From Patescibacteria group bacterium (GTDB taxonomy: Bacteria; Patescibacteriota; Microgenomatia; UBA1400; PJMF01): 64,000 nt of DNA. Position 1 is the first letter of the stretch. Each line of letters opens with the position of its first letter. The DNA is taken from positions 13,373 through 77,372 of the forward strand of contig JBMORQ010000015.1 in NCBI GenBank assembly GCA_049322575.1. The letters run 5' to 3'. The translations under genes were made by a program, and so were the position numbers. Below, in pieces: positions 54,277 through 57,825 of the stretch. The notes beneath the pieces were generated by a model. That model was given only the letters and a program-made list of their open reading frames with translations. It searched no databases and was not told the origin of the DNA.

Positions 54277-55515
54277 CTAGAGGAAGAGCAAGAGTAGAGC
54301 ACCTACACCTAGGGCTACAAGCCCGACCTTGAGATAGTTCATCCAATCAGCTGGGCCGGTTTGAGGTAACTCAGCTGGCAGTTCTTGGGCTACGTAAACT
54401 GTCTCAACATACTTGGTGGTGGCACCACTTGGCATTCTGCAATACTGATCCTCGGGATTGACGTCAAGCCTACAGCGTCCGTTGTAGCAGATATGACTGA
54501 CATTGGCACAGTCTGAGTTGATTGAGCAGGTGTCATTACATTGAACAGTAGTGACAACTATGTAGCCAGTCGGTTGTGGTGAAACATATGGAGGCAGGGT
54601 TGGTACTGGGGTATTGGTGGCACCAGGCACTGGCGTGTTAGTTGGCACAGTCGGGGCGGTGCAACATGAACTGTAGCTCGGGTTAGCCGCACAGGCCGTT
54701 CGATATTCGTTGTAGCCACAGTAGTTGCTGCCGTTACTGGCTGGGATACAGACCAAGCTACCAGTACAGTCATCGTCATTTGAACATGGTGTGTAACCAC
54801 AGTCGCTGGGAGCGGGAGTTGGTGTAGCCGTTGGAGCAGCTGTACAACAACTTGCAACACTTGGACTGGCGATACAGGCAGTTCTGTATTGTGGCAAACT
54901 ACAGTAGTTATTGCCGTTGTTTGCAGTGACACAGACTAGTTCTCCGGCACAACTGTTATCATCGGTGCAAGGCGTGTATCCACATTCACTTGGAGCTGGT
55001 GTTGCTGTTGGAGTCGGGGTGGACGACGGGGTTGGTGTGCGGGACGGTGTCGGTGATGGCCCACGGGTTGGTGTGGGGGAAACCGATGGCCGCCTGGTTG
55101 GGGTTGGCGATTGTCTGGTGATTGTTGGGCTAGGTCGTGGTGTTGAGGTAGCCGTGACACGAGGTGTTGTTGGAGTGGGATTGACAGCTCCGACATCGAA
55201 AGTTAGAGTACAAGTGGCTGTTTTCGAAACATATGCGGCCGGTTCTGACTCAGGAGCATTAGGAGCCACTGGCGCTGTTTTGCTGATGCGCTGCTTCTGA
55301 GAGATGAGTACACCTGCTAAGCCAGCGACTAAAACGAGGATGAGAGCCACAACCCCAAGCAAAGCGCGAACATCAACACCAAGAAGCTTCTTGGGTGATT
55401 TCTTTTTGAAACCACTGGGAATGTTGGCCGACGGTACATTACCAATCACTTGATCAGGGTTGTTGGCGTGATCCTTCATATATAAAGCTTGTGGTTGGTT
55501 ATTAGTGTCTATCAT
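54277..55515 (-). CDS. Cysteine-rich, Pro/Thr-rich surface protein with an N-terminal signal anchor and a C-terminal LPXTG sorting signal
   Basis: An N-terminal transmembrane helix (VALILVLVAGLAGVLI); two internal repeats of about 60 aa, each with eight Cys (ECGYTPC..C.G.LVC....NG.NYC....YRTAC...PS..SCCTA); and C-terminal LPQTG followed by a hydrophobic tail. Confidence 0.6.
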   Translation of the reverse strand: MIDTNNQPQALYMKDHANNPDQVIGNVPSANIPSGFKKKSPKKLLGVDVRALLGVVALILVLVAGLAGVLISQKQRISKTAPVAPNAPESEPAAYVSKTATCTLTFDVGAVNPTPTTPRVTATSTPRPSPTITRQSPTPTRRPSVSPTPTRGPSPTPSRTPTPSSTPTPTATPAPSECGYTPCTDDNSCAGELVCVTANNGNNYCSLPQYRTACIASPSVASCCTAAPTATPTPAPSDCGYTPCSNDDDCTGSLVCIPASNGSNYCGYNEYRTACAANPSYSSCCTAPTVPTNTPVPGATNTPVPTLPPYVSPQPTGYIVVTTVQCNDTCSINSDCANVSHICYNGRCRLDVNPEDQYCRMPSGATTKYVETVYVAQELPAELPQTGPADWMNYLKVGLVALGVGALLLLFL

Positions 55516-55530
55516 TTTATTTTATCTAGA

Positions 55531-57825
55531 TTACCAAGTAGTTGGCCGAACAATTGTCTCCATGTTTTCTTTCATGTAGCCAGTATCTCCTCGCCAAATG
55601 CTGATACCATAGATAGTGGTAGTGTTTGGCATTTGGTAAATGCTGAGCAGTTGCATGTTTCCACTACTTCGGCCAGGGTTCAACCATTGGTTTGTCATAG
55701 AGTTATCCCAAGTTTTCCATGGTTGAGCGGCACTGAAGTTGAGAACACCATTTGCCACTGGAACAACTCGTGTGTAAATGATGTTGCTGCGAGCGATCAT
55801 CTGTTCATAATGAGTGTTGTTTGGTAATGGATAAGTTTCAAACATTTGAATATCACCTGAGCCTGGAAGCGATGAGATTGCGACTGGACCAGACCACGAA
55901 GCTCCCGGAGCACTCCAGTTGATATCGCTGCCATCGGTTGTTGGAGGTGCAGTCCTAGAATAACCTTGATTACCTCTCCATAGACCTTGTTGATACTGAC
56001 CATTGGGCAATCTATATGTCGTTAAGGCTTGAACATTGCCAGAACCAGTGTTAGGACCAGTGATTCCAGAGGTGTCACTTTCCCATTGTGTCGCAGATGT
56101 CCAGAGAATTATATTACCTGACACGGGAACGTTTCTTCGATAACCTGTATTACCTCTCCAAAAAATCTGCTGATACTGACCATTGGGTAATGCATACAAA
56201 GTTGTTGCCTGAATTTCCCCTGATCCAGGTAGACCTCTTAGGCTGAATGGCCCTTGCCAATCTCCGGTTCCCCAATCGATCACGCGTCTTTCCATCTGGA
56301 ATGGTGTAGGTGTGGGGGTTGGCGGAACGGTCGTCACTCTGGGAGTTACAACTCCTGTAATGCTATATGTTGGTTGAGGTGCAAACGGCCAATCTTCATA
56401 AGGATGACATGTCGTTTCCGATGTACAAACCCGACATTGAGCAGCATAGCGACCGGTTTCGGGTAAAGTGTAGTTACTTGACATTGCACCAGTGGCTGCC
56501 AGCTTAGTGATGGTGCCATTAGGTTGCATGACGCGGAATTCGTAGTGATGAACAGCACCAGTGGCAGCACATTGGAAGTGAACTAGGCTGCCTCTGCTAA
56601 GGTTTCTATCAGCATCGCCAGTTAAGACTTGGTTGTTAGAGTCCAGCAGCTGAATATTGTTACACTGAGGACCAGCTGGAGGAGGAGTAACCTGACCTTC
56701 ACAGGGAGGACCATACTCAGACCAACTTGAGTCTAAACAACTATCCCACTGTCGTACTCCACAGTATGACTGGTTCATCCAGGCAACCTTGGCTGCTTCC
56801 ATGTTTTGTTCAGCAGTTTTACCGTTGCCATCATGGTACCACTCACAGTAACCGGTCCAGGTAATATCTGAGTCTGTGCTTGGAGGACATCCGCCGCCCC
56901 ATTGGCTACGAGGTACTTCTTCATAGTAGTAAGGGCAGGAGTAGAAACAGGCATAGAGCGAAGGAACACCGTTTTCATCTACCTCACAAGTGCCGCCATT
57001 TTGGTTACATTCACAATCGTCATTGAGACCATTGGGACAGTGTGGCATGGTAGTTTGACACTCGCTATATCCATCATTTGGGGTTGGGTCGTAGCAGCCT
57101 GCTTGACAGTTAGCTGGACTGCCTGTGGGATTATCGCCACAGAGTACAGCATTCCAGCTACATCCTGTAGCTCTACAAAGATTTCTAGAATCATTATAGT
57201 CCGAGCAAATGGTGCCGTTGGATGGATTGCCATAACAACAACGTGGGGTTGGAGAAGGGGTAATCGTTGTACCTGAGCCGCAGGCGTTGGTGTTCCAGGT
57301 ACAGGTGAATGGGTCATTTGGATTTATACAATCTGTGCGGTTAGTCATGTACTGACACTCAGGGCTTGAGCCAGTGCAACAAACTGGTGCTGTAGATGGT
57401 TGTGGGGTACTTGTAGGTGGTCTAGGGGTATTTGTTGGACCCGCGCCACAAGCACTGGTGTTCCAGGTACAGGTGAATGGGTCATTTGGATTTATACAAT
57501 CTGTGCGGTTAGTCATGTACTGACACTCAGGGCTTGAACCAGTGCAACACGGATAAGCCATCTGAGCCTGATTTCTTACGTCTTGAGTTTGTTGGGAAAG
57601 CACATAAGCAGCCACCGAGCCAACGATGGCTACTAACAGGACAACTCCGGCTATCACGTTTTTTAGGCTAAATTTACTGCTGCGTTTCTTGAACGAAGGA
57701 GGATTGTTTGAGTCAGCTGGGGTAACAGGTGTGACCACTGGGTTAGGGTTGCTAGTTATAGCTGGAGGGCGAACTCCAGAATTATTGATTTGTGGTGATG
57801 GGGCAGAGCCCATGGCGTTTATCAT
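55531..57825 (-). CDS. Large cysteine-rich secreted or surface protein (764 aa) with tandem Cys-module repeats and YxLPNGQYQQ repeats
   Basis: An N-terminal signal anchor; two copies of about 58 aa (CCTGSSPECQYMTNRTDCINPNDPFTCTWNT.ACG); and further repeats (YALPNGQYQQIFWRGNTGY / YRLPNGQYQQGLWRGNQGY). GC content is elevated. Confidence 0.55.
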   Translation of the reverse strand: MINAMGSAPSPQINNSGVRPPAITSNPNPVVTPVTPADSNNPPSFKKRSSKFSLKNVIAGVVLLVAIVGSVAAYVLSQQTQDVRNQAQMAYPCCTGSSPECQYMTNRTDCINPNDPFTCTWNTSACGAGPTNTPRPPTSTPQPSTAPVCCTGSSPECQYMTNRTDCINPNDPFTCTWNTNACGSGTTITPSPTPRCCYGNPSNGTICSDYNDSRNLCRATGCSWNAVLCGDNPTGSPANCQAGCYDPTPNDGYSECQTTMPHCPNGLNDDCECNQNGGTCEVDENGVPSLYACFYSCPYYYEEVPRSQWGGGCPPSTDSDITWTGYCEWYHDGNGKTAEQNMEAAKVAWMNQSYCGVRQWDSCLDSSWSEYGPPCEGQVTPPPAGPQCNNIQLLDSNNQVLTGDADRNLSRGSLVHFQCAATGAVHHYEFRVMQPNGTITKLAATGAMSSNYTLPETGRYAAQCRVCTSETTCHPYEDWPFAPQPTYSITGVVTPRVTTVPPTPTPTPFQMERRVIDWGTGDWQGPFSLRGLPGSGEIQATTLYALPNGQYQQIFWRGNTGYRRNVPVSGNIILWTSATQWESDTSGITGPNTGSGNVQALTTYRLPNGQYQQGLWRGNQGYSRTAPPTTDGSDINWSAPGASWSGPVAISSLPGSGDIQMFETYPLPNNTHYEQMIARSNIIYTRVVPVANGVLNFSAAQPWKTWDNSMTNQWLNPGRSSGNMQLLSIYQMPNTTTIYGISIWRGDTGYMKENMETIVRPTTW
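57283..57550. repeat. Intragenic tandem duplication: two near-identical blocks of about 95 bp spaced about 180 bp apart, inside the Cys-rich gene
   Basis: The block ggtgttccaggtacaggtgaatgggtcatttggatttatacaatctgtgcggttagtcatgtactgacactcagggcttga occurs at 57290-57370 and again at 57460-57540. Confidence 0.7.

Follow-up and report, generated by a model that had tools for sequence, protein, structure and literature searches.

A conserved gene pair encoding predicted cysteine-rich surface proteins in Patescibacteria

The locus and its genes

Patescibacteria live attached to microbes, and beyond type IV pili and Pam pili the molecules through which they make contact are largely unknown. The present analysis concerns two adjacent genes, here called A412 and B764, in a 64-kb stretch of DNA (the window, that is, the whole stretch that was analysed) from a Patescibacteria metagenome-assembled genome (MAG; GCA_049322575.1, contig JBMORQ010000015.1), whose lineage appears to be Pacebacteria/Microgenomatia-like. 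Both genes lie on the minus strand, and their open reading frames (ORFs), of 412 and 764 amino acids (aa), are present exactly as a first-pass annotation made from the sequence letters had claimed. B764 is 100% identical to the NCBI entry from the MAG 'hypothetical protein ACOZAN_01680 [Patescibacteria group bacterium]', and A412 is identical to an entry of the MAG that NCBI names 'LPXTG cell wall anchor domain-containing protein'. Neither protein matched a Pfam family at E <= 1 except as noise, and when NCBIfam was included the sole match was a borderline LPXTG anchor in A412. Within the window, the cysteine-rich, immunoglobulin (Ig)-like and propeller-type modules described below are confined to these two genes, and the LPXTG-like tail is confined to A412.

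57838-57915, minus strand: two sigma-70-like promoter matches 5' of B764, weak, from a consensus scan; shuffled sequence would be expected to give as many matches as the region does
55531-57825, minus strand: B764 gene (ORF and translation), with an N-terminal anchor, Cys-rich modules, an Ig-like domain and C-terminal propeller-like repeats
54277-55515, minus strand: A412 gene, stalk-like and Cys-rich, with a C-terminal LPQTG-type sorting signal
54231-54251, minus strand: intrinsic-terminator-like hairpin of 8 pairs, 7 of them G-C, followed by T7, 26 nucleotides (nt) past the A412 stop codon

The two genes are predicted to form a bicistronic operon, because they are separated by a gap of 15 nt, the hairpin with its run of T residues follows A412, and promoter-like sites precede B764.

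Architecture of A412

The N-terminus of A412 consists of a hydrophilic region of ~45 residues followed by a hydrophobic segment of ~21 residues, directly after which no AxA-type site is found. Such N-terminal hydrophobic segments and Pro/Thr linkers occur in both proteins, as had been noted earlier. The remainder of the protein comprises a short conserved head, a spacer, three Cys-rich modules and the C-terminal signal.

55300-55365, minus strand: N-terminal hydrophobic segment, aa ~51-72, from the sequence; VLISQKQ follows the segment in family members
55192-55275, minus strand: head motif APxAPxSxPxA...C[ST]LxFxV, conserved in the family and holding the lone C102
54991-55188, minus strand: Pro/Thr-rich linker, aa 110-175, from the sequence
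54844-54984, minus strand: 8-Cys module 1, aa 178-224, from the sequence
54661-54801, minus strand: 8-Cys module 2, aa 239-285, from the sequence; AlphaFold2 confidence (predicted local distance difference test, pLDDT) 94-96 across the module
54439-54540, minus strand: 6-Cys module CNDxCxxNxDCxNxSHICYNGRCRLDxNPxDxxC, aa 326-359, from the family alignment; pLDDT 93-96
54280-54369, minus strand: sorting signal LPQTG-PADWMNYLKVGLVALGVGALLLLFL, with no basic tail, from TIGR01167 and family alignment A7

The pair of 8-Cys modules that the first-pass annotation described is thus present, the two copies being 61% identical in amino acids and 60% in nucleotides; the 6-Cys module and the lone C102 were overlooked there, and with them the total comes to 23 Cys.

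The homologues of A412 (n=79) include none with a functional name and are largely from Patescibacteria, as far as their sources name them. What they have in common is the conserved head (VLISQKQ...APxAPxSxPxA...C[ST]LxFxV), a variable middle that holds between 0 and 3 of the 8-Cys modules, a very conserved 6-Cys module, and a conserved tail. The number of Cys residues is odd in 61 of the 73 full-length family members and in all 17 A-like genes of the loci fetched for comparison (see below), and the counts fit 1 + 8n + 6, therefore the head Cys would be a conserved unpaired residue. In the family (P0002-P0075) this extra Cys, which is C102 in A412 (window ~55210-55212), lies ~25-30 residues past the hydrophobic segment.

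Two further ideas about A412 were considered and rejected. One is that A412 is a sortase-assembled pilin; the head Lys (YVSK) is replaced in many members (e.g. AYINQESC and ADIGGSGC), and no sortase was found within 10 kb in any related locus. The other is an intermolecular disulfide between A412 and B764 deduced from Cys parity, since Cys counts of B-like proteins are mixed (28, 32, 22, 24 and 74 are even) and lend no support to B as the partner.

Architecture of B764

B764 is a mosaic of modules, of which the 6-Cys modules (here CC modules) and the YxLPNGQYQQ repeats had been recognised earlier and are borne out, while a degenerate third CC copy, a 14-Cys region and an Ig-like domain had been overlooked.

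57595-57657, minus strand: N-terminal hydrophobic segment, aa 57-77, followed by QDVRNQA; B-like neighbours of related loci share a conserved N-terminal region
57448-57549, minus strand: CC module copy 1, aa 93-126, CC-x6-C-x8-C-x8-C-x6-C, from the sequence
57280-57381, minus strand: CC module copy 2, aa 149-182, with one synonymous mismatch against copy 1 over a ~93-nt core
57139-57240, minus strand: CC module copy 3, aa 196-229, degenerate, with 28% amino-acid identity to copy 2
56701-57108, minus strand: Cys-rich middle, aa 240-375, with 14 Cys; weak relatives only, e.g. P0207 aligned over aa 232-485
56371-56691, minus strand: Ig-like domain with five invariant Cys, aa 379-485 (~105 aa), the hallmark of the B-like family (alignment A6)
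55534-56283, minus strand: four repeats of ~60 aa, aa 515-764, predicted to be beta-propeller-type blades; a putative glycan-binding domain

The Ig-like domain gave weak profile matches to immunoglobulin-fold chains. The repeats, which are preceded by a Pro/Thr linker, carry the motif YxLPNGQYQQ..WRGNxGY, and the fourth is degenerate. A word-indexed homologue search with the whole of B764 returned the protein itself and nothing else; an exhaustive HMMER search gave 311 matches, none of them full-length, which fall into two domain families. The Ig-like domain occurs in 54 proteins, mostly at the extreme C-terminus (exhaustive HMMER, representative search). The ~60-aa repeats occur in 98 proteins of very varied architecture (exhaustive HMMER), where they are fused, among others, to a PL8 polysaccharide lyase (P0097), an RHS protein (P0085), a DUF11/DUF7507 giant (P0120) and dockerin-like tails. 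A search with the CC-module region found nothing, not even B764 itself, and is therefore a weak negative; a local hidden Markov model (HMM) of the three CC modules also found nothing. By regular expression, single CC-module look-alikes were located in the B-like proteins of two related loci (L005 and L010) and in P0161, compared with three modules in B764.

A short motif, Q-[DE]-[IV]-R-x-[QRK]-A, stands directly past the N-terminal hydrophobic segment of B764 (aa 80-86, window ~57568-57588) and recurs in the B-like genes of L002 and L009 as well as in distant A-like proteins (P0068, P0072 and P0075). Possibly it serves as a signal for processing or sorting that is specific to the lineage.

Predicted structures

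AlphaFold2 modelling of A412 aa 233-385 from a 55-row alignment gave a mean pLDDT of 81.6, the 8-Cys and 6-Cys modules reaching 93-96 and the downstream Pro/Thr-rich linker at aa ~292-314 (not the linker at aa 110-175) falling below 50. The best structural matches of the modules in Foldseek were Dkk4 and inhibitor-cystine-knot (ICK) toxins, with template-modelling (TM) scores of 0.5-0.6 on the target over ~30 residues. Profile searches of PDB were marginal, the matches including knottin 6jic (E = 0.066), Dkk4 and the Dumpy DPY module 1oig (E = 0.024). The earlier description of the modules as Cys-knot-like therefore stands in part: they behave as autonomous mini-domains, and the likeness to knottins and Dickkopf proteins is weak, with no significant match. 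For the modelled folds, 'knottin-like' is a reasonable description and not demonstrated membership.

For B764 aa 505-764, a 30-row alignment gave a model with a pLDDT of 79.2 and a predicted TM score (pTM) of 0.78, in which each of the repeats is built of three to four strands, with a pLDDT of just 54-67 for the fourth. All top Foldseek matches were beta-propellers, namely sialidases, glutaminyl cyclase, WD40 proteins, the RSL lectin and GH43 enzymes, and this agrees with the first-pass suggestion that the YxLPNGQYQQ repeats resemble propeller blades.

Conservation of the pair

Comparison was extended to 18 related loci, 2 of them around homologues and 16 from GTDB species representatives, which include Candidatus Pacebacteria UBA6180 and UBA6188, Paceibacterota, Parcubacteria-group MAGs and evidently mislabelled third-party annotation (TPA) MAGs. 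With regard to the last, 10 of the 16 representative records (L004-L006, L008, L010, L011, L013, L016, L018 and L019) are titled "uncultured Pseudomonadales bacterium", which looks like a labelling error in TPA MAGs.

In 12 related loci the A-like gene has a gene with the Ig-like domain as its immediate upstream neighbour. On the other side, the strictly syntenic neighbour of the A-like gene is a tRNA gene, which is located in the window as follows.

53962-54036, minus strand: tRNA-Ile(UAU)

In all 13 loci checked (L001, L002, L004-L010, L013, L016, L017 and L019) this tRNA-Ile(UAU) gene is directly downstream of the A-like gene and on the same strand. Genes for a membrane-fusion protein (MFP), an ATP-binding cassette (ABC) ATPase and a MacB-type permease follow downstream in 10 loci, and a divergent ABC-2 exporter precedes the pair in 7. 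Because the arrangement with the Ig-domain gene (12 loci) and with tRNA-Ile(UAU) (13 of 13) is conserved, the pair is best read from its synteny as a vertically inherited core locus and not as an island at a tRNA site.

The two partners also appear to share modules. Propeller repeats of the B764 type are placed between an A-type head and tail in P0022 and in the A-like gene of L007, and the B-like gene of L007 bears propeller repeats as well. The presence of the same tip domain on either partner argues that both proteins belong to one surface structure.

In one locus (L001, 4513-9963) the position of B764 is taken by four genes, including one for a 1040-aa protein with 100 Cys; there the B-like protein is split into an N-terminal piece of 157 aa and a piece of 370 aa that bears the Ig-like domain. 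As for the tRNA, most bacteria read AUA by means of a lysidine-modified CAU tRNA, and the UAU anticodon and the strict synteny are both worth recording.

A direct repeat within B764

The DNA that encodes the first two CC modules forms a direct repeat.

57409-57549, no strand assigned: direct repeat copy b, at a spacing of 168 nt from copy a
57241-57381, no strand assigned: direct repeat copy a, 141 nt, 88% identical to copy b

A near-identical repeat had been reported close to these positions, and its existence is confirmed. The core of ~93 nt has one synonymous mismatch and includes an exact run of 82 nt, far beyond chance. The flanks are just ~70% identical, the linkers are of 22 and 13 residues in the alignment of the units, and the degenerate third copy follows. 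The description of the repeat as a fresh duplication is not upheld, as near-identity is limited to the module core within an older tandem unit of ~70% identity. Had the whole unit been duplicated recently, its flanks would be identical as well; the pattern of identity therefore fits gene conversion, or very recent recombination, of the core inside an older tandem array.

As the sequence is a MAG, and an exact tract of 82 nt exceeds typical assembly k-mers, the repeat could in principle be a false expansion or collapse, an artefact that the first-pass annotation had itself named as a ground of refutation. This appears improbable in view of a 3.7-kb Logan contig (SRR32167786) that matches window 53639-57317 with 0 mismatches and stops 31 nt into the exact tract. 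The Logan assembly is independent, and SRR32167786 and the MAG may or may not derive from one sample. In a k=31 graph a contig ends 31 nt into a repeated tract where two different continuations exist, therefore at least two copies are real. Moreover, the copies have distinct, in-frame flanks of ~70% identity, and the degenerate third copy accompanies them. The repeat is thus real in the reads, and the exact number of identical copies needs reads to fix. No strain variants of the repeat were matched in JGI metagenomes (0 matches in exact-DNA and protein scans), and there is no close strain among the relatives, the best A-like identity being ~65%. The ongoing variation in repeat number that the first-pass annotation suggested thus gains no support, while between family members the number of modules does differ.

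Base composition and the question of lateral transfer

The GC content of the region, as had been observed, is higher than that of its surroundings (0.489 vs 0.392 in the rest of the window). An expected value was computed for each gene from the amino acids that it encodes and the codon usage of the window's other 44 ORFs; GC2 and GC3 denote GC at the second and third codon positions.

B764: GC observed 0.478, expected 0.475; GC3 observed 0.393, expected 0.394
A412: GC observed 0.517, expected 0.488; GC3 observed 0.440, expected 0.371

The GC3 excess of A412 (+0.069) is inside the spread of the other genes. GC2 of the two genes is 0.557 and 0.584, and the rise falls at codon position 2 because of their content of Pro, Thr, Ala, Ser, Gly and Cys. 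The elevated GC is an effect of amino-acid composition, entirely in B764 and mostly in A412, and the idea that it signifies more than composition fails on the codon-usage comparison that the first-pass annotation itself had proposed. A false lead is thereby removed, in that the GC rise is no evidence of gene transfer.

A horizontally acquired, GC-rich genomic island beside a tRNA gene is accordingly an explanation that we can hardly credit and have rejected. It would account for the regional GC, for the position of the tRNA-Ile gene 240 nt downstream, and for a composition sharply unlike that of the 0.318-GC block at 58-64 kb. Against it, the codon usage of the window reproduces the GC of B764 exactly and that of A412 mostly, with the excess at codon position 2 and typical GC3; the order of B-like gene, A-like gene and tRNA-Ile(UAU) is kept in up to 13 species-level genomes and is not patchy at the tRNA site; and no integrase and no flanking repeats were found at the region.

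Elsewhere in the window, the neighbouring ABC-transporter genes are also GC-raised (0.465). The genes for the MacB-type permease, the ABC ATPase and the HlyD-like membrane-fusion protein (50612-53825, minus strand) have a GC3 excess of +0.125 to +0.165, and an ORF of 247 aa (45055-45798, minus strand) without a Pfam match has the top GC of the window (0.509; GC3 +0.16).

Proposed role and its alternatives

That A412 and B764 are extracellular, disulfide-rich surface proteins is, in our judgement, very likely, and the evidence supports the earlier view of them as modular, Cys-rich envelope proteins of a Patescibacteria (episymbiont-type) organism. Their Cys modules would be disulfide-bonded outside the cell; families of MdbA-like oxidoreductases and VKOR are enriched in the candidate phyla radiation (CPR; PMC6744442). 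We further consider it probable that the pair is a conserved surface-protein operon in which A412 is the scaffold and B764 the variable partner that bears the tip, the two contributing to an adhesive or envelope-display structure. A412 and B764 would also be physically associated. A role in adhesion to a host or partner is a more tentative proposal, for which the odds seem somewhat below even.

Under this proposal A412 would comprise a membrane-spanning leader and a head in which a single Cys is left unpaired; then would come a Pro/Thr spacer in extended form, two 8-Cys beads locked by disulfides, and the 6-Cys bead beside the LPQTG-type signal. A sortase might link A412 to peptidoglycan, or the signal might hold A412 in the membrane; by either route, sortase or plain membrane anchor, the C-terminal signal would keep the protein at the surface. 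B764 would have an N-terminal anchor, three lineage-expanded CC modules, the Cys-rich region and the Ig-like domain, with Pro/Thr linkers serving as extended spacers in both proteins, and its distal four-blade propeller-like domain may bind glycans, be they those of a partner cell, a host cell or a substrate. Glycan binding is the most likely function of the propeller domain, judging from the modules with which it travels.

The case for sortase processing of A412 is evenly balanced. LPQTG occupies aa 383-387 of the 412-aa protein, ~30 residues from the C-terminus, and the hydrophobic, membrane-spanning segment that follows is YLKVGLVALGVGALLLLFL. The first-pass annotation had seen this motif and tail, and both are borne out: the NCBIfam LPXTG-anchor model TIGR01167, which has a cut-off of 15.9 bits, scores 16.2 bits with the whole of A412, a narrow pass, and 19.7 bits with the tail fragment. 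The further claim that A412 is a sortase substrate stands for the motif and the hydrophobic segment and falls short for the charged tail and for conservation of the motif among orthologues. In alignment A7 conservation of the tail is confined to x-[TSA]-G-[PF]-x-[DE]-W and the hydrophobic helix; a basic C-terminus was found in 0 family members, and the sole charged residue is a conserved Lys that opens the hydrophobic stretch. A sortase gene, which the first-pass annotation had proposed to look for, was found neither in the 64-kb window nor within 10 kb of the related loci. [quoted passage not shown]

A number of observations weigh against the proposed surface operon. The tail of A412 lacks basic residues after the hydrophobic stretch, ending in ...LLLLFL, and the L and P of 'LPxTG' are not conserved in the family, where variants include VPTQSG, TPVAG, ELQQAG and ELIKSG, so that TIGR01167 matches just 4 of 21 family tails; the sortase motif T[LIVM]x[TS]C occurs in no real gene of the window, and the related loci are likewise without a sortase over a distance of 10 kb. 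The long N-terminal hydrophobic segments of both proteins are without an obvious signal-peptidase site, and their topology is uncertain. With respect to the folds, the resemblance of the A412 modules to knottins is not significant (best Foldseek E-value 0.56), the propeller matches of B764 have TM scores of just 0.23-0.42, and a PDB profile search with the B764 repeats found no sequence relative. Finally, the conserved gene order may reflect shared descent and not functional coupling. Homology of the B764 repeats to the RSL lectin, tried as a specific candidate, was rejected at the level of sequence, the hhalign probability being 0.6%.

The strongest rival, which we nevertheless think unlikely, holds that the pair are structural components of the envelope, such as a wall-spanning or S-layer-like scaffold, and not host adhesins. 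The fixed locus among envelope genes (ABC-2 exporter, glycosyltransferases and MacB-type pump) would suit such a role, as would the conservation of the A412 head and 6-Cys/tail region, which is far greater than would be expected of a host-facing, diversifying adhesin, and the presence in the window of Lgt and a GH3 enzyme. What speaks against it is that module content differs strongly between species in the middle of A412 and in almost the whole of B764, with propeller repeats gained and lost, and that in other bacteria polysaccharide lyase, RHS and dockerin-like modules accompany the propeller repeat; binding modules typically show both patterns. A bolder version of the surface-operon reading, in which the A-like and B-like proteins form a lineage-specific, two-component appendage, a disulfide-stitched adhesive fibre new to Patescibacteria, is a long shot. 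In such a fibre an intermolecular disulfide would join the unpaired head Cys to a second A subunit or to a partner protein; the tail, x-[TSA]-G-P-x-D-W and a helix without a basic end, would be processed by an unusual sortase or by an enzyme dedicated to it; tip domains that can be exchanged (propeller and CC modules) would set the specificity for partner or host; and the syntenic MacB-type pump might help to extract or erect the structure.

The same pump figures in a very different scenario, in which the Cys modules give rise to knottin-like peptides (toxins or bacteriocins) that are cut from the linkers and secreted through the MFP-ABC-MacB pump. The weak structural likeness to ICK toxins and Dickkopf proteins and the pump genes downstream in 10 loci would be compatible with this, yet there are no recognisable bacteriocin-type cleavage motifs or leader peptides, the proteins have N-terminal hydrophobic segments of their own, with a C-terminal anchor besides in A412, the pump genes are set apart from A412 by a terminator and a tRNA gene, and the pair is kept without the pump in four loci; it is very improbable that the peptides are the product of this locus. 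The scaffold-and-tip operon thus remains the reading we prefer.

Relation to known systems

The closest known kind of protein to A412 is the LPXTG wall-anchored protein of Gram-positive bacteria, which it resembles in LPQTG, the hydrophobic segment, the TIGR01167 pass, the modular repeats and the Pro/Thr-rich, wall-spanning spacer upstream of the anchor. It differs in having no positive tail, an unconserved L and P, an N-terminus that looks more like a long signal anchor than a short, cleaved signal peptide, and no sortase gene in the window or near its relatives. In the CPR group Peribacteria, Cys-rich extracellular proteins together with sortase were proposed to be attachment factors with strain-level variation (Anantharaman et al. 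2016, PMC4736985); compared by description, these are alike in being Cys-rich, predicted to be extracellular and of CPR origin, but they average ~1,655 aa and lie in a 14-gene cluster (PMC4736985), whereas the modules of A412 and B764 have no Pfam model. The general idea of Cys-rich extracellular attachment proteins and sortase in CPR bacteria is thus not new (PMC4736985).

Among small disulfide-rich folds, the A412 modules share with knottin/ICK, Dickkopf/colipase and Dumpy DPY domains a length of 35-50 aa, a high density of disulfides (predicted in A412) and a C-x-x-x-D-C...C...C beta-hairpin core; the best matches were WCI (6jic), Dkk4, 1oig, psalmotoxin and other ICK toxins, all non-significant (E 0.02-2). 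The 8-Cys module differs in having Cys for four disulfides and two short helices, and its context differs from that of knottins in being bacterial and anchored and not a free toxin. The predicted blades of B764 are like those of beta-propeller lectins and sialidases (RSL, GH43) in consisting mainly of three long strands and a shorter leading strand, in their conserved W/R/Q/Y/G positions and in co-occurring with carbohydrate-active and adhesin modules, but differ in the low TM scores, the lack of a Pfam family and the number of four repeats with the last degenerate. Pam pili (PamA/PamB), reported from Microgenomatia and Saccharimonadia (bioRxiv 10.64898/2026.03.03.709456), are, compared by description, likewise CPR-specific surface structures with an Ig-like fold and paired Cys. 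Pam operons include chaperone-usher-like factors, none of which was seen beside the A412/B764 pair, and the Ig-like domain of B764 is one domain of a large Cys-rich protein and not a pilin.

What is new here is the definition of the conserved, unannotated B-like/A-like pair, the non-canonical consensus of the tail, the conserved unpaired head Cys, the propeller domain shuffled between two partners, and five modules that lack a family model, namely the 8-Cys bead, the 6-Cys bead with tail, the CC module, the five-Cys Ig-like domain and the ~60-aa propeller repeat. The alignments are ready for family models, and the tip domains that differ between species are candidates for partner recognition and envelope display in Pacebacteria/Microgenomatia-like lineages.

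Other features of the window

Upstream of the pair lies the AT-rich block (58058-63943, GC 0.318), which holds genes for an ABC-2 exporter pair and for two glycosyltransferases of family 2, as well as two ORFs that match no Pfam family, and which is probably a glycan or teichoic-acid-type export cluster. At 35192-45042 on the plus strand, a TrwB/HerA-like ATPase of 780 aa is followed by proteins of 1681, 612 and 206 aa, the 612-aa protein having a weak, sub-threshold match to AAA_30 and the other two no Pfam match; the block may serve conjugation or a type IV-like secretion. A Fic/DOC-MerR fusion (48344-49351, plus strand) and, adjoining it, a gene for an AbiEii-type nucleotidyltransferase toxin (49426-50064, minus strand) are located just upstream of the ABC pump genes.

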